Both the position numbers and the translations under genes were made by a program. 64,000 nucleotides of DNA from Coriobacteriia bacterium (GTDB lineage: Bacteria > Actinomycetota > Coriobacteriia > Anaerosomatales > PHET01). The DNA is taken from the NCBI GenBank assembly GCA_034370385.1, contig JAXMKZ010000004.1, forward strand, positions 1,238-65,237, written 5' to 3'. Numbering within the stretch: the stretch's first letter is position 1; the number at the start of each line of letters is the position of its first letter. The notes below the pieces were generated by a model, which was not told the DNA's origin, made no database searches, and worked only from the letters and a program-made list of their open reading frames with translations. Shown piece by piece: positions 42,848-57,573 of the stretch.

Positions 42848-42923
42848 TGGTGGAGACGAGGAGATTCGAACTCCCGACCTCTGCGTTGCGAACGCAGCGC
42901 TCTCCCAACTGAGCCACGTCCCC
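42848..42923 (-). tRNA. tRNA-Ala (anticodon CGC)
   Basis: 76-nt cloverleaf: GGGGACG acceptor with a G3:U70 pair, GCTCAGTTGGGAGAGC D-arm, CTGCG-TTCGCAA-CGCAG anticodon arm, GGGAGTTCGAATCTCC T-arm and an encoded CCA. Confidence 0.95.
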
Positions 42924-43907: not shown

Positions 43908-44867
43908 TCAGGTCTTGAGCAGGTCGTCCACGCCGTCGGCGGCACGGATCTCAGCGAGGATCTCCCCGCCCCCAAGCTCAAGCAGGCGAGCCACCATCGC
44001 ATCTCCCAGCCCCTCGGGATCTGAGGGGTCACCCTGCAGACGGTCGCGCACGATCCGGTCGCCCTCGACAGAACCGACGAGGCCGTCCATGACAAGCACG
44101 CCGTCTTCGATGCGGGCATACGCGCCGATGGGTACCTGACAGCCGCCTTCGAGCTTCTTCATGACCACTCGCTCGGAGGTCACGCATGTGAACGTCTCGG
44201 GATCTGAGATCTTGTCGCACACCTCGATCATGAACTCGTCGTCGGAGCGAATCTCGATGCCGATGGCACCCTGACCTACCGCCGACACCATCTGCTCGGT
44301 CGGAATGTAGTTTGAGATGCGGTCGGCCCAACCCATCCGAGTGATACCCGCCGACGCAAGGATGACCACGTCGACCTCACCGTCCTCGGCTTTGCGCATG
44401 CGGGTGTCGAGGTTGCCTCGCACGTCCACGATCTGAACGTCGGGCCGAAGGCCGCGCACCTGAGCGACGCGGCGCAGCGAGCTCGTGCCGACCTTCGCGC
44501 CTTGAGGGAGCGTCTCCAAGGTGTAGCCCTTGCCCGAGACAAGCGCATCGCGTGGATCCACGCGCTTCGGGGTAGCGGCGATGTGCATGCCCGGCGGCAG
44601 CTCGGTGGGGACGTCCTTCATCGAGTGGACGCACAGGTCGACCGTGCCGGCCGCCAGTTCGACCTCGAGCTCCTTGGTGAACAGCCCCTTGCCGCCGACC
44701 TTGGCCAGCGGCACGTCAAGGATCTTGTCGCCGGTGGTCTTGATGATCATGAGCTCCACCGTAAGCCCGGTGATCTCCTCGAGTAGCCCCTTGATGTAGT
44801 TCGACTGCCACAGGGCCAGTTTGCTTCCCCGGGTACCGATCACGAGCTTGTGGCGGCTAGCAGCCAA
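43908..44867 (-). CDS. hemC: Hydroxymethylbilane synthase (porphobilinogen deaminase)
   Basis: LVIGTRGSKLALWQS...GGKGLFTKELE...HSMKDVP...RGNLDTR...GGCQVPIGAYA. Confidence 0.95.
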   Translation of the reverse strand: MAASRHKLVIGTRGSKLALWQSNYIKGLLEEITGLTVELMIIKTTGDKILDVPLAKVGGKGLFTKELEVELAAGTVDLCVHSMKDVPTELPPGMHIAATPKRVDPRDALVSGKGYTLETLPQGAKVGTSSLRRVAQVRGLRPDVQIVDVRGNLDTRMRKAEDGEVDVVILASAGITRMGWADRISNYIPTEQMVSAVGQGAIGIEIRSDDEFMIEVCDKISDPETFTCVTSERVVMKKLEGGCQVPIGAYARIEDGVLVMDGLVGSVEGDRIVRDRLQGDPSDPEGLGDAMVARLLELGGGEILAEIRAADGVDDLLKT

Positions 44868-46230
44868 CGGAGTCTCCCATCTCTTTTTGCTTTGAGGGAG
44901 CGGCGGACTTCTCGCCCCGCTTCAGTAGGTTGCGAATCAGTCCGAAGTGCGGACTCTTGCCGTCTGGATTCGTGTCCAGGCCGTAGAGGTAGCGTGCGGC
45001 TTCGATGTAGCCGATTCCGTACTTGTCGGTGCTGACCCGCTTCAGCCGCTCGGTGGGCCCGTGGAGCATCTTGCTCACGATGGCTTGCGACATCATCTCG
45101 ACGGTCCTGAGTTCCTTCTCCGACAGACCACCAAGGCGCTTCACGGCCTTCTCGAGCTCCTCGGCCCGAATCGTCTCGGCCTTGGCGCGGATTGCGGCGA
45201 CGGTGGGGACGACCGCCATGGAATCAAGCCACGTCTCAAACGCGCGCATCTCCTCGTCGATGATGATCTCGGCCCGCTCCGCCTCGCGCATGCGCTCGTC
45301 GAGGTTGGACGACACGACACCGTTGAGGTCGTCGATGTTGTAGAGAAAGACGTCGGACACGTCGCCGCACGCCGGATCGATATCGCGCGGCAGGGCGATG
45401 TCGATCAGAAAGAGCGGGTCGCGCCGACGGTGTGCGACGGCGACCAGCTGCTCACGCGTGATGACGAACTCGGTCGCTGCGGTCGAGGAGATGACGATGT
45501 CGGCCTCGCGCATGCGATCGAAGAGATTCTCGTAGGGAATCGCCTCGCCGTCGAATCGGTCGGCAAGCTCCACCGCGCGCTCGTAGGTGCGGTTAGCCAC
45601 GAGGGTGCGCGTCACGCCGGCGCCGACGAGGTTCTTGGCCGTAAGCTCGCTCATCTTGCCCGCGCCCAAGATCATGACGCAGCGGCCCTGGAGGTTCTCG
45701 AATACCCGCTTGGCCAGCTCAACGGCAGCGTAGCTGATCGAGACGGCGTTCTCGCCGATGTCGGTCTCGGTGCGCACGCGCTTGCCGACCTCGAAGCTCT
45801 GACGGAACAGCTTGTTGAAGATGCGGCCCGTAGACGCGGCTGAGAACGCGTGGTCGTAGGCCTCTTTCACCTGACCGAGGATCTGCGCCTCGCCAAGCAC
45901 CATGGAATCGAGCGAGGCGACGACGCGGAAGAGGTGCTTCACGACCGCCTCGCCCTCTGAGATGTAGAGGTAGCGAACCAGCTCGTGGCGGTCGAGATCG
46001 TGGTACTCCGCGGCGAAGTCGATGATGGAAGCGGGGCCATCGAAGCCGTCAGACGTGACCGCATATATCTCGGTGCGGTTGCAGGTGGAGATGATGACGG
46101 CCTCGGACACGGCGTCGGACGCGGTCAAGCGCGCGAGCGCGTCCTCCTGGCGATTGGCCGGGAACGTCAGCTTCTCGCGGATCTCGACCGGTGCGGTCTT
46201 GTGGCTCAGGCCCACAAGTGTCAGGTGCAT
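44857..46230 (-). CDS. hemA: Glutamyl-tRNA reductase
   Basis: MHLTLVGLSHKTAPVEIREKL...STCNRTEIY...ILGAGKMSE. ATG 46230 is chosen over the longest ORF (46338). Confidence 0.95.
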   Translation of the reverse strand: MHLTLVGLSHKTAPVEIREKLTFPANRQEDALARLTASDAVSEAVIISTCNRTEIYAVTSDGFDGPASIIDFAAEYHDLDRHELVRYLYISEGEAVVKHLFRVVASLDSMVLGEAQILGQVKEAYDHAFSAASTGRIFNKLFRQSFEVGKRVRTETDIGENAVSISYAAVELAKRVFENLQGRCVMILGAGKMSELTAKNLVGAGVTRTLVANRTYERAVELADRFDGEAIPYENLFDRMREADIVISSTAATEFVITREQLVAVAHRRRDPLFLIDIALPRDIDPACGDVSDVFLYNIDDLNGVVSSNLDERMREAERAEIIIDEEMRAFETWLDSMAVVPTVAAIRAKAETIRAEELEKAVKRLGGLSEKELRTVEMMSQAIVSKMLHGPTERLKRVSTDKYGIGYIEAARYLYGLDTNPDGKSPHFGLIRNLLKRGEKSAAPSKQKEMGDSVGC

Positions 46231-46410
46231 GCGGTCTTCACTCGCTCCTACGGTCCGATTCGGTTGTCTACGTCGGTCGGCATCCGACGTCAGGACACAG
46301 GTACGCCCTCGCCGATGCGGTGCGTGTTGTTCAGGCAAGCAGGCCCGGCGAGGGCGGTATACGTGTTCAACTATTGGAACGCACCACTGCTTCTCGCCTG
46401 AACATCACGA

Positions 46411-46419
46411 ATTCTACCA
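46411..46419 (-). promoter_or_regulatory. Extended -10 promoter candidate (TGGTAGAAT) for hemA, with a structured leader of about 180 nt
   Basis: The minus strand reads gaTGGTAGAATtc. The leader contains an 11-bp inverted repeat, CGCCCTCGCCG...CGGCGAGGGCG. Confidence 0.3.
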
Positions 46420-46472
46420 TCGGCACGAGTACACTGCCACCTGAGCAAGCGCCGTTCCGATGCGCGCAGAAC

Positions 46473-47855
46473 TCACGATGTCCGGTACGGTGCGGCGTCC
46501 TCGGCGATGTAGTACTTCCTGTTGGGATCATTCGGCGATGACCCGACCTCGACCACCAAACCAGCCTCCACAAGCGACTTGAGGCGCTCCCGTGCCGAGC
46601 GTGGAGTGCGCTCGATTCGTCGGGCGACCTCGCTTGTCGACAGCGGGCCCGCGCCGGCGAGTTCCTGCAGGACGCGAGCGTCTGCCGCCTTGACGCTGAC
46701 TCGGCCGCCTTCGCCGACATCTGCGTAGAGCGTGACACGAATCTGCTGCGCCATCTCCTCGATGCGCGGATCCGCGAGCCCTGCGGCGCGGCATGCCTCG
46801 ATCGCGCGGGGAATCCCCGTCCCCCACTGCTCGATGATGCCGAGTTCCCGGAAGACGCGGGCGATCACGCGATTGCGCACGCGAGAGACCCCGCCCAAGA
46901 CGTCCTCGACAGTGAGACCAGGGAGCAGCAGGCCCGGACTATCCACCTCGATTCTGTCGTCGTGGATCGCGACTCGTATCCGGAGGCCGGGCAAGGAGTA
47001 GTCGGCGTGCACGACCGCATTCACGATGACCTCACGCACGGCGACGAGCGGATACTGCCAGCTCTCGGTCCGCGCAAGCCCCTCGATCTCGTAGCGCTGC
47101 GCGATGTTGCGACGCACGAACGCCATGGTGTGCTCCAGCGCAACCGGCAGACACCCGCCATAGATCGCGGCATCCGTGAAGGTGCTGCGCGAGAAGCCTG
47201 CAAACCGTGCCACCTCGATAACCGCATCAGGGAACGTGGCCTCGCGGTCCACACCGAACAGCAGCACGCCGCCGACGGTCGGACACAGTTGCCCCTCACG
47301 TTCCGTCAACAGCCGCAGCGTCTTCAGCGCCCGTCTGTCTATGTGACGCCTGCCGTCGAACACCGCTTGCACCGCAGCCACATCGAGCGCATCGTCACCC
47401 AGCGTCGCAAGCGCGACTTCGTCGTAGGTCGGCCCCGACACCGAGCGACCGATCTGCGCAGCCATAGCTGCATCCGCACGCCGATTGGTGGAGCCGACGC
47501 GAACGTAGACCCCCTGCGCATCCCCCTCGCCCGCGACGCGATACGGGCGCGAGGCCCCCGGGTGCACACGAACCGCGAGTAGACTCTTGTCGCGCCACGT
47601 GACCACATCGATCTCGGGCGCGATCAGGGGCTCCACCGAGTCTGCGATGATGTTCGCCAAGCGCTCTTCGAGATCGAGCGGATCATCGACACCCACGATC
47701 TCGCGCGTACGGTCCGCCACACCGATGAGCACCGTGCCGCCGGCCGAATTGGCAAACGCAACAACCGTTCGCACGATTCCGCGCGGAGATGAGGCGTCCC
47801 TCTTGAACTCAAGAGTCTTGCCTTCATGACAGGTCAGCAGGTGATTGAGGTCCAT
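46473..47855 (-). CDS. AlbA_2 (Schlafen-like) plus HATPase_c_4 plus C-terminal wHTH protein (often annotated ATP-binding / putative transcriptional regulator)
   Basis: HEGKTLEFKRD...VVAFANSAGGTVLIGV is an AlbA_2 signature. REVIVNAVVHADY... is GHKL-like. C-terminal LSTSEVARRIERTPRSARERLKSLVEAGLV. Confidence 0.75.
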   Translation of the reverse strand: MDLNHLLTCHEGKTLEFKRDASSPRGIVRTVVAFANSAGGTVLIGVADRTREIVGVDDPLDLEERLANIIADSVEPLIAPEIDVVTWRDKSLLAVRVHPGASRPYRVAGEGDAQGVYVRVGSTNRRADAAMAAQIGRSVSGPTYDEVALATLGDDALDVAAVQAVFDGRRHIDRRALKTLRLLTEREGQLCPTVGGVLLFGVDREATFPDAVIEVARFAGFSRSTFTDAAIYGGCLPVALEHTMAFVRRNIAQRYEIEGLARTESWQYPLVAVREVIVNAVVHADYSLPGLRIRVAIHDDRIEVDSPGLLLPGLTVEDVLGGVSRVRNRVIARVFRELGIIEQWGTGIPRAIEACRAAGLADPRIEEMAQQIRVTLYADVGEGGRVSVKAADARVLQELAGAGPLSTSEVARRIERTPRSARERLKSLVEAGLVVEVGSSPNDPNRKYYIAEDAAPYRTS

Positions 47856-47909
47856 GCTAGGAAATCTACTCTGAAGATGCGCAGCGCACAAGACTTCCGA
47901 GTAGATTTC

Positions 47910-48725
47910 CTACTTCCCCTTGCGGGCCTTGCGCACGTCGCCGTCGACGATGGCGAAGAAGACCTCGGGCAGCAGACCCTTCAGTCGGAAGTAGAACGCC
48001 GAGAGCGCGTCGGGGATCACGTGGTAGTGACCGCGGTCGATGGCCCGCATCACCGCGTGCGCAACCTTCTCCGGCGAGATCGGCTTGATCCCGCCTGCTA
48101 TGACGTCGGTCTCGTACGGGCGCAGCGTGTGCTCGTGGGTGAGTGCCGGCGTGTCGGTGTCGGGCGGGCACACCACCGAGACCGTGACGCCCGCCGGTTT
48201 CATCTCGAAACGCAGGGCCTCGGTGAAGCCCATCACGGCGAACTTCGCTGACGAGTAGCCGGTGTAGCCGTAGATGCCGAGGTAGCCCGCCACTGAGCTC
48301 ACGTTGACGATGTGGCCGTGGCCGCGCTCCACCATGCCCGGAGCGGCCGCACGACACGGGTAGACGACGCTCCAGAAGCCGTGCTCGATGTTCATCTCGA
48401 ACGACTCGAGCGGCATGGAGATGAACTCGCCCGGAATGATGACGCCGGCGGAGTTGACGAGGATCTCGGGCGAGAAGCCGTCGGCGGCGAGTTCGGCGAA
48501 GGCGGCGCCGGTGGCTTCCCACGATGAGAGGTCGGCGCTCTTCCATGCGATGCGCTGATTCGGGGTCGACGCCTCGGCGCGCACCGCTTCCGCAGCGGCT
48601 TCCAGCCGACCGGCGTCGCGCGCAACCAGCGCCACATTGTACCCTCGGCGCGCCAACTCCTTGGCGCAGGCCAGCCCGATGCCCGAGCTGCCGCCCGTGA
48701 CGATCGCCGTGCGGTCACTCGCCAT
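47910..48725 (-). CDS. Classical SDR oxidoreductase; the C-terminal region resembles 3-ketodihydrosphingosine-reductase-type SDRs
   Basis: TAIVTGGSSGIGLA, YSSAKFAV (YxxxK), VVCPPDTDTP. ATG 48725; the upstream part of the longest ORF is an SRSP-rich artefact. Confidence 0.75.
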   Translation of the reverse strand: MASDRTAIVTGGSSGIGLACAKELARRGYNVALVARDAGRLEAAAEAVRAEASTPNQRIAWKSADLSSWEATGAAFAELAADGFSPEILVNSAGVIIPGEFISMPLESFEMNIEHGFWSVVYPCRAAAPGMVERGHGHIVNVSSVAGYLGIYGYTGYSSAKFAVMGFTEALRFEMKPAGVTVSVVCPPDTDTPALTHEHTLRPYETDVIAGGIKPISPEKVAHAVMRAIDRGHYHVIPDALSAFYFRLKGLLPEVFFAIVDGDVRKARKGK

Positions 48726-49476
48726 GTGCGGGCTCCGGTTCGGCGGCAGGCTCGGGCTCGGGCTCGACCCCGGCTTCGGCCGCGGGCTCAGGCTCCGATT
48801 CGGCCGCGGGCCCGGGCTCCGGCTCCGGCTCCGGCTCTGGTGCGAACGCTTCGTACACGTCCTCAGCAGCAAGGATCTCTCCCGCAGTCACACGATCCAG
48901 CGTGTCGGACTCGAAGACCGCGTCGAGCAGCTTCTCGAGCTGCGCTGGGCCCTCAAGGCGCTCCATGCCGATGGCGCGCACCTGCGCCACGAGCTCTGCG
49001 TAGGGCCCCCACGCCGCACCGAACTGCTCGGAGAGCTGCTTGCGCAGCCGCTTGGCGAGCTGCGGAGCTACGCCACCGGTCGACACGGCGATCTGAAGCG
49101 GTTCACGGTGGACCATACCGGGCACGATGAAGCTCGAGAGCTTCGGATTGTCCGCGACGGTCACGAGCGCCCCCACCAACAACGCCTCTTCGAACACGGC
49201 GCGCTGCACTTCGGGCTCCGCCGACGCACAGACCACGAGCGCGGCGCCTGCCAGATCTCCGCGCACGTACTCACGCGCCTCGACGATGATGTGGCCGTCG
49301 CTTTCCGCCTCGACGAGCTCTTCGCTCGGATCGGGGCCGACCACCGTCACGTCCGCGCCGTAGCGCACGAGCTGGCGCGCCTTGCGCTCGACCGATGGAC
49401 CCGAGCCCAAGACGACCACGGATCTGCCGGTCAGGTCGAGGAACGCAGGATAGTAGCGCTTCGTCCTCTCCCCCAT
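48715..49476 (-). CDS. Precorrin-2 dehydrogenase / sirohydrochlorin ferrochelatase-like (SirC/CysG N-terminal type) with acidic Pro-Glu repeat tail
   Basis: YYPAFLDLTGRSVVVLGSGPSVERKARQLVRYGADVTVV. The C-terminal ~50 aa read PEPEPEPEPGPAAESEPEPAAEAGVEPEPEPAAEPEP. Confidence 0.8.
   Translation of the reverse strand: MGERTKRYYPAFLDLTGRSVVVLGSGPSVERKARQLVRYGADVTVVGPDPSEELVEAESDGHIIVEAREYVRGDLAGAALVVCASAEPEVQRAVFEEALLVGALVTVADNPKLSSFIVPGMVHREPLQIAVSTGGVAPQLAKRLRKQLSEQFGAAWGPYAELVAQVRAIGMERLEGPAQLEKLLDAVFESDTLDRVTAGEILAAEDVYEAFAPEPEPEPEPGPAAESEPEPAAEAGVEPEPEPAAEPEPAHGE
48731..48840. repeat. Degenerate GGCTCS hexanucleotide low-complexity tract (encodes the PE-rich tail)
   Basis: ggctccggttcggc...ctcgggctcgggctcg...gggctccggctccggctccggctc, read directly. 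Confidence 0.8.
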
Positions 49477-49488
49477 CAAGAAATCCCC

Positions 49489-50325
49489 CTACAACTGACC
49501 GAAGACATGGAACCCGACGGGGAGCGTGCGCGCGATGATGGCAAGGATGACCACGAAGACGAACCCGAGCACCGCCACCCACGCCACGGTGTGGTTCGAG
49601 ATGTCGGGACGGTAGGCCAGAACCAGGTAGATGGCGAAGGTGATGAGCACGACGCCCGACATCATGATGCGCGCGTCGAAGAACCACCCGCCGACGTCGA
49701 CCTGGATCGCACGAATGATGCCGAGGGACAGCCCTGCGGTGTAGACGGGGAATGCCAGGGCGATGGCGCGGCGCGAAACCATCTGGAGGGTGGCAAGCGA
49801 GGGCAGGCGACGGCTCATGCGATTGCTGCGATGGGACTTGAGCTGGGAGCTCTGATACAGGTAGAGCAGCGCCGACACGGCGCCCACGGCAAAACCCGCG
49901 TTGGCGAAGACGATAAGGCCCACGTGAAAGGCCACGCCCCATCCGCTGAGGATCTCGGGCTGAGGCGCCAGCGAAGCCTCGCTCCCGCCCATAAGCTGTG
50001 CCGCGGCCATGAGCACGACGGCCACCGGGATGAGAAACGCCCCGTAGGACCGGATCTTCAGCAGATGCTCCATGACGAAGTACAGGAGCACGAGCGCCCA
50101 ACTGGCCAGTACGAGCTGGTTGGAGCCGGTCAGAGGTGTACCGTCGTTGGCTACGGAGTTCGCACCGATGGCCAGAGTCTGCAGAATGAATCCCGCGCCC
50201 GTGGCAAACCGCGCCCACCACGCGACCTTCTGGCGGCGAAGAACGAACTGATAGGCGTAGAGGACCGTCGCGACGACGTACAGCGCGAATGCGAACCAGT
50301 AGAGTACGACAGATAGCTGCTCCAC
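49489..50325 (-). CDS. HemX/CcsA-like cytochrome c assembly family membrane protein without a canonical WWD motif
   Basis: 278 aa, about 8 TM. The topology and position (ccm/hem junction) resemble B. subtilis HemX. Only a degenerate GGWFFDARI stands in place of WGxxWxWD. Confidence 0.65.
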   Translation of the reverse strand: MEQLSVVLYWFAFALYVVATVLYAYQFVLRRQKVAWWARFATGAGFILQTLAIGANSVANDGTPLTGSNQLVLASWALVLLYFVMEHLLKIRSYGAFLIPVAVVLMAAAQLMGGSEASLAPQPEILSGWGVAFHVGLIVFANAGFAVGAVSALLYLYQSSQLKSHRSNRMSRRLPSLATLQMVSRRAIALAFPVYTAGLSLGIIRAIQVDVGGWFFDARIMMSGVVLITFAIYLVLAYRPDISNHTVAWVAVLGFVFVVILAIIARTLPVGFHVFGQL

Positions 50326-50458: not shown

Positions 50459-50644
50459 CTATTCGCCGGCGCGCTTGGAGACCGCGCCCTCAAGCACGTC
50501 GACTTCCTTCTCAAGCCGCATGATGCGCCGCAGCACCATCGTGAGGTAGACGACGAAGGCGACCCACAGGATCGCGTAGGCCCCGATGACGAAGGGCGCG
50601 TCCGTGAGTGCGAGGCGGTAGAGTTCAAGGTTGGTGGGTTCCAT
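50459..50644 (-). CDS. ccmD: CcmD-like small heme-exporter subunit
   Basis: 61 aa with a single TM (FVIGAYAILWVAFVVYLTMVL) followed by RRIMRLEKEV. Lies directly after ccmC. Confidence 0.7.
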   Translation of the reverse strand: MEPTNLELYRLALTDAPFVIGAYAILWVAFVVYLTMVLRRIMRLEKEVDVLEGAVSKRAGE

Positions 50645-50695: not shown

Positions 50696-51454
50696 TCAGC
50701 CCTCGAGTGTCTCCTTGGCGATCTCGACGCGCTCCCGCAGCCGCTCTTCGCTCATGCGCGAGACGTAGATGCCGTATCCGATCATGAGCATGCCGATCTG
50801 GGCCACGATGAACGGCATCAGGTTCGATGAGGCCATACCCGGCTGGAACACCACGGGGTGGTTCGAGGGAATGACCCGGGTGATCATGAAGGACAGCGGC
50901 GCGTTGATAGCGGCGAGGATCGCAAACACCGCAGCGTACGTGGCGCGACGCTCCTCCTCTTCGATCGAGTTTCGCAAGACGAAGTAGGCGATCATCATGA
51001 GCATCATGATGAAGTACGTGGTGAGACGAGGCTCCCACTCCCACCACACACCCCACGAGGCCTTGGTCCACAGCACGCCCGTGATCATCGTGAGCACGAC
51101 GAACACCAGCGAGGTCTCCATGGCGATGCGGGACTTGGTGTCGTACTCGGCCCGCTTGGTCATGAGGAAGCGTACGGCGAATATCGCCGAGATTATGAGC
51201 ACGAGGAACGACGCCTCGGCCACCGGCACGTGGAAGTAGAAGATCTTCTGACTGAACCACGGGCGAACGTAGGCGATGCCCTCGGCCGGCTGCAACTGAT
51301 CTGGCGCCACGGGGAACACCGTCTCGATGGGTGCGTCGAAGGTCACCGTTCCGAACTGCTGCACCTCGGCGGTGTAGAAGGCCATGAGGAACGCGACGGT
51401 CGTGAGAACCCCGCCGATCAAGACGAGTACCACAGCGATCTTGAGCTGTTTCAC
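50696..51454 (-). CDS. ccmC: Heme exporter protein CcmC
   Basis: GTG 51454 with a GGAAGGAG SD. Trp-rich motif WGVWWEWEPRLT (WGxxWxW[D/E]PRLT). Confidence 0.85.
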   Translation of the reverse strand: MKQLKIAVVLVLIGGVLTTVAFLMAFYTAEVQQFGTVTFDAPIETVFPVAPDQLQPAEGIAYVRPWFSQKIFYFHVPVAEASFLVLIISAIFAVRFLMTKRAEYDTKSRIAMETSLVFVVLTMITGVLWTKASWGVWWEWEPRLTTYFIMMLMMIAYFVLRNSIEEEERRATYAAVFAILAAINAPLSFMITRVIPSNHPVVFQPGMASSNLMPFIVAQIGMLMIGYGIYVSRMSEERLRERVEIAKETLEG

Positions 51455-51494
51455 GCGCACTCCTTCCGATAGGAAGACACCGGCGCCGCGTGCA

Positions 51495-52220
51495 TCACGC
51501 GCCGAGGACGAACTCGTAGAGGGCGAAGGCCGCAAGCAGCATGACCGCATCGTACCCCGCCGCGATGCCCATCATCTGCCAGTACGTGTTCACGTACCCC
51601 GGATCGGCCTGCAACACCGCCGCCGACGCTGCGACCACCGCCAGGAGCAGCGGGAACATGATCGGGATGAACAGTACCGCCAAGATGAAGTCCTTGCCCT
51701 TGGTGTTCACCGACATGGTAGCGAGCAGCGTGCCCACCCCGGCGATACCGATCGAACCGACCAGCAGCGCCAACGCGAGCATCCACATTGGTCCGCCGGA
51801 CGCCGCACCCGGGCGCGAGAGGAAGATGAAGAAGAACAGCGGCACGATCATCACCTCGACGATGAGCAGGAAGATGAGGTTGCCCACCGCCTTGCCGAAG
51901 AAGATCACCGGACGGTCGGTGGGCGAGATGAGCAAAGCGTCAAGACAACCCTGGTCCTTCTCGTGTACGAGCGAGCGGTTCAGACCGAGGAGCGACGTGA
52001 AGATGAACACGAGCCACAGCAGGCCGGCCGCGATGCGCCGGACTTCGAAGTCCGCACCCGCCTGCGACAGCGTGATGTAGTAGACGACGAGGACGAGCAG
52101 GGCATACAGGCCCATCGAAGTGAGCATCTCTTTGGTGCGCAGCTCCATGACGATGTCCTTCTTCAGGATCGCCTTGAACTGACGCCACGACGACATGTTC
52201 GAGGTGCGCTCGCGTGCCAC
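51495..52220 (-). CDS. ccmB: Heme exporter protein CcmB (ABC permease)
   Basis: 241 aa, 6 TM. FKAILKKDIVMELRTKE N-terminus. Lies between ccmA and ccmC. An alternative ATG start is at 52196. Confidence 0.8.
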   Translation of the reverse strand: MARERTSNMSSWRQFKAILKKDIVMELRTKEMLTSMGLYALLVLVVYYITLSQAGADFEVRRIAAGLLWLVFIFTSLLGLNRSLVHEKDQGCLDALLISPTDRPVIFFGKAVGNLIFLLIVEVMIVPLFFFIFLSRPGAASGGPMWMLALALLVGSIGIAGVGTLLATMSVNTKGKDFILAVLFIPIMFPLLLAVVAASAAVLQADPGYVNTYWQMMGIAAGYDAVMLLAAFALYEFVLGA

Positions 52221-52952
52221 CTAGCTCACCCCCAGACCCACGGTTGAGCGGTAGGTCTGCTGGAACTCGTCCTCGTCGATGAGCTCCTTGTCCTGATAGA
52301 GCACGATCTTGCCCTTCGCCAGAATCAGCGCGTGGCTACACAGTTCGAGCCCCTTGGTCAGATCGTGGCTCACCATGACGAACGTCCGACCCTCTCGGAT
52401 ACGCTCGAGCAGGCCGTCGAGGATGTCCATCGCGTGCGGATCCAGCCCCGAGTACGGCTCGTCGAGGAAGATGAGCGCCGGATCGTGCAGCAGCGCGCGT
52501 GCTATCGACAACCTCTGCAGCATGCCGCGCGAGAAGGTGCGCACGAGGTCGAGCCGCCGATGGTCCAGCTCCACCGCGTCAAGCAGCTCGTGAATGCGCT
52601 CCTTGGGGTTGTCGATGCAGTAGATCTCAGCGAAGAACTCGAGGTTCTCCTCGGCGGAAAGGTCGGGGTACAGCAAGGGGTTGTGGCTGATGAAGCCGAT
52701 ACGTTCGCGCAGTTCCACCGCACCCTGGACGACGTCGAAGCCAAGCACCTTCGCCGACCCCTTCGACGGGGTGGTAAGCGTCGAGAGCACCTTGAGTAGC
52801 GTGGTCTTCCCCGCGCCGTTGGGGCCGAAGATCGACAGGAACGCGCCTTCGGTCAGGTCGAAGTCGACCCCGTCGAGGGCCTTGCGTGCGCCGAAGGTCC
52901 GGGAGAGTTCCCGGACCTCCAGCGCATTCGGTGTCTGTGTGTTATCGGTCAT
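52221..52952 (-). CDS. ccmA: Heme ABC exporter ATP-binding protein CcmA
   Basis: GPNGAGKTTLLK (Walker A), LSRGMLQRLSIA (signature-like), LIFLDEPYSGLD (Walker B). Confidence 0.85.
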   Translation of the reverse strand: MTDNTQTPNALEVRELSRTFGARKALDGVDFDLTEGAFLSIFGPNGAGKTTLLKVLSTLTTPSKGSAKVLGFDVVQGAVELRERIGFISHNPLLYPDLSAEENLEFFAEIYCIDNPKERIHELLDAVELDHRRLDLVRTFSRGMLQRLSIARALLHDPALIFLDEPYSGLDPHAMDILDGLLERIREGRTFVMVSHDLTKGLELCSHALILAKGKIVLYQDKELIDEDEFQQTYRSTVGLGVS

Positions 52953-52964
52953 CGACGACGGACT

Positions 52965-55091
<2,127 letters not shown>

Positions 55092-55120: not shown

Positions 55121-55153
55121 AAAGCACCTCGCCGGATTCTTCCGACGAGGTGC
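55121..55153 (-). terminator. Hairpin plus T-tract in the ccmE-ccmF spacer (possible attenuator or partial terminator)
   Basis: The minus strand reads GCACCTCG-14 nt-CGAGGTGC followed by TTTCATGTT. It lies between the ccmE stop (55162) and the ccmF start (55091). Confidence 0.35.
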
Positions 55154-55161
55154 TGGAGTTC

Positions 55162-55848
55162 CTACTTCTTCTCGCTTGCCTCAAGAGCGACGTCGGTGGC
55201 GGTGATGAGGCCCTCAGCGTCTACGCCGCCCTTGATGATCACCATACTCCCGTCGTTCATGCCCGCGGGCAGGGCACCGTCCCACGCGACCTTGTATGAC
55301 TTGGCGCCGGCGTCTTGAGATCCGGCGACCGAGAAGCGCGCATCGCCGCCTGGCGCAGCGATCGTGCCGGCAACCACGTAACCCGAGAACGACACGTCGT
55401 CGAGCGTCTGACCGTCCTTGATGGCGCCGACGTCCATCGCGCCCGTAGCCGACTCGTACTTCGAGGGGCACTTGGTGATCATCTCGCCGGCTTCGATGTG
55501 GCCGTCAGCCGCAAGCTCGCCGGTGATGATGGCCGTGACGCCGTCGCCGAACGTGGAGGGCACGGGACCGTTGTAGACGACCTTGACAACCGCGCCGGTG
55601 CCGTCAGTATCCGCCTCGTCGCGGATGTCGAACGTCATCGGGTTGGACTTCTTGTCCCACGAGCCGGTCACCACGGCGCCGCCCAACTTCACGCGCTCAC
55701 CCACGAGCTCGTCATCAGTGGCGACTTCTTCGACCGACTTGTAGTAGGCGGTGCTTCCACTACTGCCGATGGACGCGAAAATGGCCACAATCGACAGCAG
55801 CACGATTGCGGTGACTCCGATCAGCCTGTTGCGAGCCCTCTTGTTCAC
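55162..55848 (-). CDS. ccmE: Cytochrome c maturation heme chaperone CcmE, CxxxY variant, with an additional C-terminal OB-like domain
   Basis: N-terminal TM anchor and OB-fold. EMITKCPSKYES aligns to E. coli EVLAKHDENYTP, with Cys127 (TGC, 55468-55470) in place of the heme-binding His. About 95 extra C-terminal residues. Confidence 0.85.
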   Translation of the reverse strand: MNKRARNRLIGVTAIVLLSIVAIFASIGSSGSTAYYKSVEEVATDDELVGERVKLGGAVVTGSWDKKSNPMTFDIRDEADTDGTGAVVKVVYNGPVPSTFGDGVTAIITGELAADGHIEAGEMITKCPSKYESATGAMDVGAIKDGQTLDDVSFSGYVVAGTIAAPGGDARFSVAGSQDAGAKSYKVAWDGALPAGMNDGSMVIIKGGVDAEGLITATDVALEASEKK

Positions 55849-56056: not shown

Positions 56057-56977
56057 TCACCGCTGCAACCACTGCGCATCCGGCGTGAAACCCGTCGCGC
56101 GCATCAGCTCCAGGTAGCGGCTCGGAGCCAGAGCGGCCGAGGCACCTTCGAGCGCCACCATGGTGGCCTCGATGACGTTGGTCCCGAATGTGCGCCCCTC
56201 GAGACGCGGCGTGCTCGTGATGAGTAGCTCGACCCCTCGCGACCTCAGGAACTCCATGTCGTTGGCGGTGGTCGTGTTCGTGACGACCCACTTGCCGGAC
56301 ATGTCCTCGGGCATATAGCGGCGTACGTACTTGTAGTCACCGGCTATGACGTCGGCTCGCCGGTAGTGCTCTGCGTGCTTCGACGAGGACTGGACCTCGG
56401 TCTCGTCGTCGGCGTCGGCCTCATAGAGCCACGCGAACGGCAGCTGGACAGCGATGGGCGCAATGACCCGAATGGCGCGCTCGAGCGATGGACGCGTGGT
56501 CAGCATGAGCGGCACCCCGAGCGCGTAGAGCAGGTCGCCTGCGACCACCTGGCATCCGGCGTCGTAGAAGCCCTCGGTCATGCCCCAGCGATCGACCGCC
56601 GAGGTCACGAGCACGGACTTGCCGGCAAGCTCGAGGCCAAGATCCTCGACCATGAAGCGCACGACGTCGGCTTCGACGGCACCCTTGAGCCCGCTACCGT
56701 CCACGATCGGTGATCTGGAGACCGCGCGGCGAAAGCGCTTCGCATCGCGGAAGTAGTAGTCGTGTCCGACGGCCCGAAGATATAGGTCGATACCACCAAG
56801 CCCGAATGCGTCCACCGATCCGTCGAGCTCACTTAGACGTGTGACCGCCTTGTCCATCGACCCGTCGGTTCCCTCGCGCGCTATACGGAAGCGCTCCCCG
56901 AGCAGGTCGACTTCCACGGCGTGGTCCCTCGCGGACGAGCCGATCGAGACAGAGACTACTTCCTTGATTGCTGCCAC
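56057..56977 (-). CDS. Conserved protein of unknown function (family sometimes annotated quinate 5-dehydrogenase-like)
   Basis: 306 aa, GTG start. VSVSIGSSARDHAVEVDLLGERFRIAREGTDGS...LDGSVDAFGLGGIDLYL. The function assignment is from memory and weak. Confidence 0.5.
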   Translation of the reverse strand: MAAIKEVVSVSIGSSARDHAVEVDLLGERFRIAREGTDGSMDKAVTRLSELDGSVDAFGLGGIDLYLRAVGHDYYFRDAKRFRRAVSRSPIVDGSGLKGAVEADVVRFMVEDLGLELAGKSVLVTSAVDRWGMTEGFYDAGCQVVAGDLLYALGVPLMLTTRPSLERAIRVIAPIAVQLPFAWLYEADADDETEVQSSSKHAEHYRRADVIAGDYKYVRRYMPEDMSGKWVVTNTTTANDMEFLRSRGVELLITSTPRLEGRTFGTNVIEATMVALEGASAALAPSRYLELMRATGFTPDAQWLQR

Positions 56978-57573
56978 CTCCCGGCGATCTCCTGCGCGGC
57001 ATCTCGAAGCACGGAGCTGACGCTGCCCGTACGCCCACCCGGACCCGCGGGCCGGGCCATGATGCCCTCGAGCAGACGGTCGAGTTCCTCGACGTCGACC
57101 GCACGATCCTCGCGCAGCGGCGAAGACCCTAGGGGGATTCCCACCACCTCTGAGCCGAGGATCTTCTCGATGGTCGCGATGCGCCAGTCACTGGCCATCA
57201 GAAGCACCGTGTCGAAGTCGCGCAGGGTCGCAAGCGTCTCCAGGAGCCGGTTGAACACGTTGGCCGGAGACCCGGCCTCAATCGATTCTCGCTGGGCCTG
57301 GCTCATGACCAGCACGAAGTCGACGGCGTGGCGTTCGGCGACCTCCTGCACCTCACCGCAGTTGGCCACCGGGAATCCGACGAGTGCAACGCGCGGACCA
57401 CGCCGAACCTCACCGAGCGTCTCAAGGAACGACACCACGCTGCGGGTCACACCCACGGCGCGCGCCGCCTCCTCCTGAGTGGCGCCGGCCTCACGGTCGG
57501 CCAGAATGGAGTCGACCGCGTCGACGAGCTTCTCCCGACTGATGACCTTCTCGCCGATCCTGAAGAAGCGCAC
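56956..57573 (-). CDS. HTH-containing putative regulator, co-transcribed with the downstream 306-aa protein
   Basis: 205 aa. GATQEEAARAVGVTRSVVSFLETLGEVRRG (HTH), then a CheY/Toprim-like alpha/beta part. Overlaps the downstream gene by 22 nt. Confidence 0.55.
   Translation of the reverse strand: MRFFRIGEKVISREKLVDAVDSILADREAGATQEEAARAVGVTRSVVSFLETLGEVRRGPRVALVGFPVANCGEVQEVAERHAVDFVLVMSQAQRESIEAGSPANVFNRLLETLATLRDFDTVLLMASDWRIATIEKILGSEVVGIPLGSSPLREDRAVDVEELDRLLEGIMARPAGPGGRTGSVSSVLRDAAQEIAGRWQQSRK

Follow-up and report, generated by a model that had tools for sequence, protein, structure and literature searches.

The haem chaperone CcmE of System I cytochrome c biogenesis is encoded in the DNA described here, a stretch of 64,000 nucleotides from a Coriobacteriia bacterium (assembly GCA_034370385.1, contig JAXMKZ010000004.1, positions 1,238 to 65,237; hereafter the window), by a gene in which the soluble CcmE domain occurs twice. 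The coding sequence (55162..55848, minus strand) specifies a protein of 228 aa, and it is strongly supported that this is a membrane-anchored, bona fide and conserved Cys-type CcmE with a duplicated CcmE domain. Its haem-binding motif sits in a constrained loop between the two domains and not in a free tail. In the class Coriobacteriia, cultured genera of the human gut among them, the tandem form is the standard CcmE, and it is the sole type of CcmE found there in the present analysis. It is the tandem architecture that appears to be new; the chemistry, of the Cys type, has been described before, and any role of the extra domain is putative.

Two CcmE domains in one protein

The open reading frame (ORF) has a GTG start and a TAG stop, with the sequence GAAGGAG about 10 nt 5' of the start, and the start codon appears to be sound because homologues open with the same residues, MNKRARNRL. 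The product is identical (100%) to a database protein (P0001). All parts of the gene are given here by their positions on the minus strand. Following KRARNR there is an N-terminal membrane anchor at about residues 9–28 (55765..55824), visible as a hydrophobic run in the sequence and as a helix spanning residues 3–31 in the AlphaFold model, and corresponding, from residue 1, to the anchor region of E. coli CcmE in the NCBIfam CcmE models. The N-terminus would then lie inside the cell, and domains 1 and 2 would both be outside. OB domain 1 occupies residues 34–126 (55471..55749) and holds a conserved VPSTFGDGV loop. It is followed by the haem-binding motif C127-P-S-K-Y131 (CPSKY; 55456..55470), the conserved inter-domain junction E132–V140 (ESATGAMxV; 55429..55455), and the motif-less OB domain 2, the barrel of which covers residues 141–223 (55180..55428), with homology to domain 1 beginning at M138. 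Finally, a vestigial tail, A224–K228 (55165..55179), stands in place of the lost C/HxxxY. The C-termini of homologues lie within 0–2 residues of this one, being either shorter or longer. AlphaFold2 models the whole protein at a mean predicted local distance difference test score (pLDDT) of 89.5, as a helix and then two five-stranded barrels.

Against the Pfam family PF03100 (CcmE) the whole protein scores 99.1 bits in two stretches (cut-off 24.6), the first of which covers residues 34–133. The best score against the NCBIfam CcmE equivalogs PRK13254, PRK13165 and PRK13150 is 65 bits, under their cut-off of 126, which fits a divergent CcmE subfamily. CcmE structures (1lm0/1j6q/1sr3/8ce8_E) are also the top PDB matches of the whole model in Foldseek, and for domain 1 the matches to CcmE structures reach a TMt of at most 0.72. 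In phmmer searches of PDB sequences, residues 46–132 align with E. coli CcmE (8ce8_E, 1sr3), the segment 'hieagemitkcpskye' pairing with 'hilakevlakhdenyt', so that Cys127 falls on His130 and Tyr131 on Tyr134 of the E. coli protein. Residues 79–131 likewise align with the Cys-type CcmE' of Desulfovibrio vulgaris (2KCT), and TKCP is common to both. A preliminary description of this gene, made by a model from the sequence alone, had read residues 121–132 as GEMITKCPSKYE and placed the codon of Cys127 at 55468–55470; both readings are correct, the codon being TGC (55470–55468 on the minus strand). The motif directly follows the last strand of barrel 1, as expected of the C/HxxxY of a CcmE, and it shows the trait of the variant known as System I*, a Cys, here within CPSKY, in place of the haem-binding His. 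By analogy with characterised relatives, Cys127 would form a covalent bond to haem, with Tyr131 as the axial ligand.

This Cys-type half of the finding is not new, since the motif has been described before. The preliminary description had named archaea and Desulfovibrio-type variants as carriers of CxxxY, which holds, although its range is wider: besides archaea, the carriers of CxxxY, including the exact form CPSKY, are Firmicutes, Chloroflexi and delta-proteobacteria, Desulfovibrio among them, and within System I* this form is in the majority (PMC3601427, reviewing Allen 2006 and Goddard 2010). There is genetic proof from Methanosarcina acetivorans that the Cys of the motif (C120) is needed for holo-CcmE (PMC9084895).

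The protein departs from the family in what comes after the motif. In characterised CcmE proteins the haem-binding residue (His130) lies in a flexible, free C-terminal tail (PMC10457321), whereas here it is followed by the conserved junction and a folded domain of 90 residues. The extension, previously put at about 95 residues, is exactly that long (residues 134–228; 55165–55449). On their own, the last 91 residues score 31.8 bits against PF03100, above the gathering threshold of 24.6 (E 1.9e-7), and the two halves of the protein find each other in BLASTP (E 8e-6). When profiles built from 30 homologues were compared with hhalign, domains 1 and 2 aligned over 83 columns with a probability of 98.4% and an E value of 7.2e-15; this alignment, which pairs VKLGGAVVTG with VSFSGYVVAG and KVVYNGPVPSTFGDGVTAIITG with KVAWDGALPAGMNDGSMVIIKG, reproduces the one first drawn by hand. 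Searched against the PDB, the domain 2 profile from the same 30 homologues matches only four sequences, all CcmE (E 7e-7 to 1e-5), the next match being at E 0.2. Modelled alone with AlphaFold2, domain 2 is a five-stranded barrel with a pLDDT of 91.2 and a predicted template modelling score (pTM) of 0.83. Its best Foldseek match in the PDB is E. coli CcmE (8ce8_E; E 1e-3, TM 0.56), followed by generic OB folds. This structural signal is modest by itself, and it is the sequence-profile evidence that points to a specifically CcmE-type domain. Two of the follow-up analyses proposed in the preliminary description, a profile search for two CcmE hits per protein and a structure prediction, have both borne out its proposal: there are two PF03100 stretches in one protein, with domain 2 above threshold by itself, and the second half is confidently predicted to be an OB barrel closest to E. 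coli CcmE.

Neither a C/HxxxY nor any His or Cys is present in domain 2. If the hhalign register is extended to the C-terminus, Ala224 takes the place of the Cys/His, and Lys228, with which the protein ends, that of the Tyr, so that the second copy is truly motif-less, as had been recognized at the outset. It is strongly supported that the soluble domain of CcmE was duplicated in an ancestor of the Coriobacteriia and that the second copy then lost the motif. An artefact, either a sequencing frameshift or a gene-calling error that fused two adjacent ccmE genes, would be the trivial explanation for the long reading frame, and has next to no probability. Domain 2 has neither a start nor a membrane anchor of its own, and the same unbroken frame is present in hundreds of independent assemblies as well as in isolate genomes, by which the artefact is refuted.

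Distribution and relationship to other CcmE proteins

The best 120 relatives of the window CcmE are 213–256 aa long, and each has one C/HxxxY, which is always CPSKY. A divergent representative (P0135), used as a query, led to a second large clade of proteins of about 221 aa, one cluster of which comprises 1085 member sequences; source names in this clade include Gordonibacter (MULTISPECIES), Raoultibacter phocaeensis, Arabiibacter massiliensis and Eggerthellaceae. Among the best 120 relatives of P0135, a member of this Eggerthellaceae clade, CPSKY is the sole C/HxxxY in 118, the other two having an additional chance match. Over both sets of best 120, lengths range from 213 to 267 aa, and CPSKY and the two-domain architecture are each found in 240 of 240. 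The Gordonibacter protein is collinear with that of the window over both domains (42% identity across 176 residues), and the proteins of cultured Gordonibacter, Raoultibacter and Arabiibacter give two Pfam CcmE stretches each, against one in relatives from Bacillota.

A scan of genomes, with one genome per species, gave 65 Actinomycetota loci, all from uncultured Coriobacteriia or unclassified metagenome-assembled genomes (MAGs). The two-domain ccmE was matched essentially full-length in 62 Actinomycetota loci; L060, L064 and L056 are truncated by the ends of their contigs, and in L059 the match covers residues 1–207. The nearest locus (L001, an Actinomycetota MAG) encodes a CcmE with 70% identity to that of the window. 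Since the architecture occurs throughout both clades, the duplication is evidently a single, old event, ancestral to the sampled Coriobacteriia, and has been retained.

A search with domain 2 alone against 1.84 billion representatives returned 43 matches at E <= 1e-3, mostly proteins of 220–230 aa that were matched twice, and Pfam recognises CcmE in two stretches of those that were tested. The 43 matches include neither a domain 2 standing alone nor any other architecture, in a search that is blind to independent CcmE duplications in other lineages. Several of the sequences matched (P0131, P0139 and P0141–P0149) are obvious fragments or chimeric gene calls on short contigs, and four others (P0132, P0152, P0159 and P0160) are DUF5666 or low-complexity repeat proteins, regarded as unrelated OB-like noise. 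The databases label the two-domain proteins only as 'CcmE' or 'CcmE domain-containing protein'. The tandem form is not peculiar to this genome, being class-wide in the Coriobacteriia and already annotated as CcmE.

The closest relatives with a single domain come from three Bacillota loci of the genome scan (L066–L068, from a Clostridia MAG, a Dehalobacterium MAG and a Bacillota MAG), which match only up to residue 133. They share the identical MITKCPSKYE, the gene order ccmE-F-A-B-C and single-membrane hosts, but their CcmE proteins are 130–146 aa long, end 2–5 residues past the motif and contain one Pfam stretch rather than two. Beside these relatives, the CcmE of Coriobacteriia looks like a CcmE of the same kind that has been extended, behind the motif, by another copy of the soluble domain. 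The System I* CcmE of Desulfovibrio (2KCT) is similar in having Cys for His, an identical TKCP...Y, an OB fold and a cluster without ccmH and ccmG (PMC3601427). It differs in having one OB domain and a motif in a free C-terminal tail, whereas in the present protein the motif is internal and a second CcmE domain comes after it. The ccm operon of D. desulfuricans works in E. coli (as cited in PMC3601427).

E. coli CcmE (1SR3; 8CE8 chain E in CcmABCD/E) has the anchor, the OB barrel and the positions of the haem residue and Tyr in common with the window protein, but has His130 in place of Cys, a length of 159 aa, a disordered tail, and CcmD, CcmG and CcmH as partners (PMC10457321, PMC3601427). 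The CcmE of M. acetivorans, with a Cys-type motif whose Cys is genetically proven to be necessary, is an archaeal protein of a single domain in a system without CcmD, and a tandem arrangement is not mentioned in the study concerned (PMC9084895). Other proteins with tandem OB folds, such as RPA, POT1 and Teb1, show likeness at the level of the fold only (Foldseek E 1e-4 to 1e-2) and no sequence relationship, and, unlike CcmE, they bind nucleic acid in the cytoplasm or nucleus. A tandem-domain CcmE appears to be undescribed in the searchable open-access literature, in agreement with the preliminary description, although an earlier mention elsewhere is possible. An extension of this kind is likewise absent from the CcmE proteins that have been solved or studied genetically, namely those of E. 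coli, Shewanella, D. vulgaris and M. acetivorans (PMC9084895). The two findings that might have overturned the proposal, a C-terminal half unlike CcmE or a characterised CcmE with the same extension, were thus not encountered: the C-terminal 95 residues are CcmE-like, and no characterised CcmE with such an extension came to light.

Conservation and possible role of the second domain

Mean pairwise identity among 30 homologues is 66% in the anchor, 67% in domain 1, 80% over residues 121–140 and 52% in domain 2. The motif together with the junction (...MITKCPSKYESATGAMxV) is the most conserved segment of the protein, and junction residues 131–140 are modelled by AlphaFold2 at a pLDDT of 93. By the Nei-Gojobori method, nonsynonymous divergence (dN) is 0.43–0.70 in domain 2 against 0.08–0.23 in domain 1, a rate about three times faster; synonymous divergence (dS) approaches saturation at the high GC content of these genomes, and dN/dS serves solely to compare the relative rates of the two domains. 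Ten residues of domain 2 are invariant among the 30 homologues, which belong to the environmental clade (G167, R171, F172, G191, P194, G196, S201, G207, A217 and V220), and across both clades G156, V158, G161, G167, R171, V187, A192, G200, G207 and A217–T218 are kept.

Such rates could be taken to mean that the duplication left domain 2 behind as a relic or spacer, tolerated but with no specific function, as it is the fastest-evolving part of the protein and its pairwise dN/dS rises, at saturated dS, to 0.86 in some comparisons. We consider this improbable. The domain is intact and of the same length, with a confidently predicted fold and invariant Gly, Pro, Arg and Phe residues, in every member listed and in two clades that have diverged to 42% identity, and a useless exported domain of 95 residues should have been lost in some lineages.

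Comparison of the two clades finds no His, Cys, Met or Tyr that is universally conserved in domain 2, and this argues that the domain has no canonical haem site of its own. In E. coli CcmE, F37, F103 and L127 form a hydrophobic platform for haem, with Y35/Y36, F100 and I124 as their counterparts in domain 1; in domain 2 the corresponding positions hold Gly/Ala, Met or a variable residue, and Ala. It might nevertheless be supposed that domain 2 serves as a reservoir or relay by binding a further haem non-covalently, giving two haems per chaperone for multihaem substrates. It is, after all, a CcmE-type OB domain, in the environmental clade the platform Phe is exchanged for a Met (M197), and in work on D. 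vulgaris CcmE' the apo-CcmE domains reportedly bind haem non-covalently in vitro. The chances of this are nonetheless slim: M197 is not kept in Eggerthellaceae, the aromatic platform positions have become Gly/Ala, and the domain is without a tail, without a Cys/His/Tyr motif and without any ligand residue conserved in both clades.

The reading preferred here, tentatively and at somewhat less than an even chance, is a role that does not require haem of its own, namely that domain 2 acts as a lid or clamp, carrying no CcmE-type haem. Going by the family, CcmC/CcmABD would load haem onto Cys127, probably via a thioether bond and with Tyr131 as axial ligand, and the holo-chaperone would pass it to CcmF for attachment at CxxCH sites. 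Domain 2 could be a built-in, haem-free lid, or second wall, that holds the Cys127–haem adduct between the two OB domains. It may shield the haem and the thioether link on the outer face, which is exposed in a cell with a single membrane (Gram-positive-type), and may also hold the motif loop in a set geometry for its presentation to CcmC and CcmF. The lid is suggested by the motif being held at both ends between barrels, in contrast to the free, disordered tail of characterised CcmE, and a role close to the haem is suggested by the strong conservation of the junction beside the haem motif. Three points weigh against it. The pTM of the full AlphaFold2 model is only 0.54. The roughly threefold faster dN of domain 2 relative to domain 1 would suit a partner-binding or merely steric role equally well. 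Lastly, the single-membrane Bacillota with MITKCPSKYE get by on one domain, so that an exposed haem is not in itself enough to demand a lid.

A partner-binding role is the other possibility of some weight, if a more doubtful one: domain 2 would be a docking or apocytochrome-handling module for the extracytoplasmic part of CcmF (or CcmC), or for unfolded apocytochrome, without contact with haem. It is similarly doubtful, though conceivable, that such a module supplies in cis part of the role of CcmH/CcmI in classical System I. Neither ccmH nor ccmG nor ccmI was found in the cluster or in the 64-kb window using Pfam and motif regular expressions; faster divergence is what would be expected of a surface that co-evolves with partners; and the CcmF of the window has lineage-specific insertions relative to the CcmF of Bacillota, which works with a single-domain CcmE. 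Interaction of CcmE with apocytochrome and with CcmF has also been reported (as summarised in PMC12285233). On the other hand, the ccmE-F-A-B-C clusters of the three Bacillota loci have no extra domain, so the loss of CcmH alone does not call for one, and the conservation of the junction beside the haem motif points to a haem-proximal role. The present data cannot separate the lid from the docking module.

Gene context and significance

The ccmE gene is the first of a ccmE-F-A-B-C-(D) cluster, a context kept in more than 40 related loci, and all genes described below are on the minus strand. It is followed by ccmF, encoding the haem lyase (52965..55091; Pfam Cytochrom_C_asm and CcmF_C), in which the motif WGGYWAWDPVEN is seen and for which an ATG at 55091 is the probable start of a reading frame that runs from 55184. 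Compared with the CcmF of Bacillota, this protein has an insertion of about 9 residues before the GMNPLL loop and an extra segment of about 25–40 residues around TMAQGGENARKLASFGPEVVYDV. Next come ccmA, for an ABC ATPase (52221..52952; Pfam ABC_tran; syntenic in related loci), ccmB (51495..52220; Pfam CcmB, 87.5 bits) and ccmC (50696..51550; Pfam Cytochrom_C_asm), the start codon of which is probably downstream of 51550. The tryptophan-rich haem-handling motif of ccmC reads WGVWWEWEPRLT, with Glu at the site of the Asp in what we take to be the canonical WxWD. A candidate ccmD (50459..50644) specifies 61 aa with one hydrophobic helix; its best Pfam match is CcmD, at a sub-threshold 16.6 bits (E 0.0085), and it is probably a real, divergent ccmD because in 46 of 68 related loci tblastn finds it in the corresponding place after ccmC. 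A CcmD is likewise part of the System I* of Desulfovibrio.

Directly after the ccmE stop, and before ccmF, lies a terminator-like, GC-rich stem-loop of 14 bp with a weak U-tail (55123..55154; minimum free energy -30.1 kcal/mol, z -5.3). The corresponding place after ccmE in related loci is taken by long GC stems that differ in sequence. The stem-loop may be a partial terminator or an mRNA stabiliser that sets the abundance of CcmE above that of CcmF.

Directly upstream of ccmE, and co-oriented with it, are two genes without a Pfam match, specifying 306 aa (56057–56977) and 205 aa (56956–57573), both of them syntenic with ccmE in about 50 related loci. At its other end the ccm cluster passes directly into haem-biosynthesis genes (43908–50325). 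These begin with a second PF01578 membrane protein, identified by Pfam and similar to HemX/CcsA (49489–50325), and a sirohaem-synthase-like protein with a Pro/Glu-rich tail (48715–49479); they are interrupted by a short-chain dehydrogenase (47910–48872) and an AlbA_2/Schlafen-HATPase_c_4-HTH protein (46473–47891), and continue with hemA (44857–46338) and hemC (43908–44867), the last two read by eye. The order up205-up306-ccmE-F-A-B-C-D?-PF01578-sirC is intact in 35 related loci and present in truncated form in most others.

Regular expressions for CcmH (LRCxxC) and thioredoxin-like (WCxxC, CGPC) motifs gave matches in unlikely frames only within the window. Clusters of System I* are frequently, but not obligatorily, without ccmH and ccmG (PMC3601427). 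Every ORF of the window contains at most one CxxCH, which places the genes of the client cytochromes elsewhere. The window has a GC content of 64.6%, and the only Rfam match is one tRNA (42851–42923).

For specialists in cytochrome c biogenesis, the tandem architecture is both unexpected and easily tested. Should domain 2 prove dispensable, it would be an evolutionary curiosity and a refinement of annotation, with two PF03100 domains of which one is functional. In textbooks CcmE figures as a haem chaperone whose tail is floppy, and a motif locked between two barrels offers a new mechanistic handle. How the covalent haem–protein bond is made and broken, especially the Cys thioether in System I*, is an open mechanistic question (PMC3601427). 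The cytochromes c and respiratory reductases of gut Eggerthellaceae are of current interest and hard to produce heterologously; Cgr1 of E. lenta was not matured in heterologous hosts, and incompatibility of maturation factors was suspected by the authors (PMC5953540). Cultured carriers such as Gordonibacter make the two-domain CcmE accessible to experiment. At its furthest, and rather unlikely when taken as a whole, the proposal would be that the tandem CcmE represents a distinct, Coriobacteriia-wide subtype of Cys-type System I, in which the duplicated haem-free OB domain is essential as a lid or partner adaptor and the haem is clamped between two barrels, and that this dependence helps to explain the resistance of cytochromes c from gut Eggerthellaceae, for instance Cgr1 of E. 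lenta, to maturation by the standard Ccm system of E. coli.

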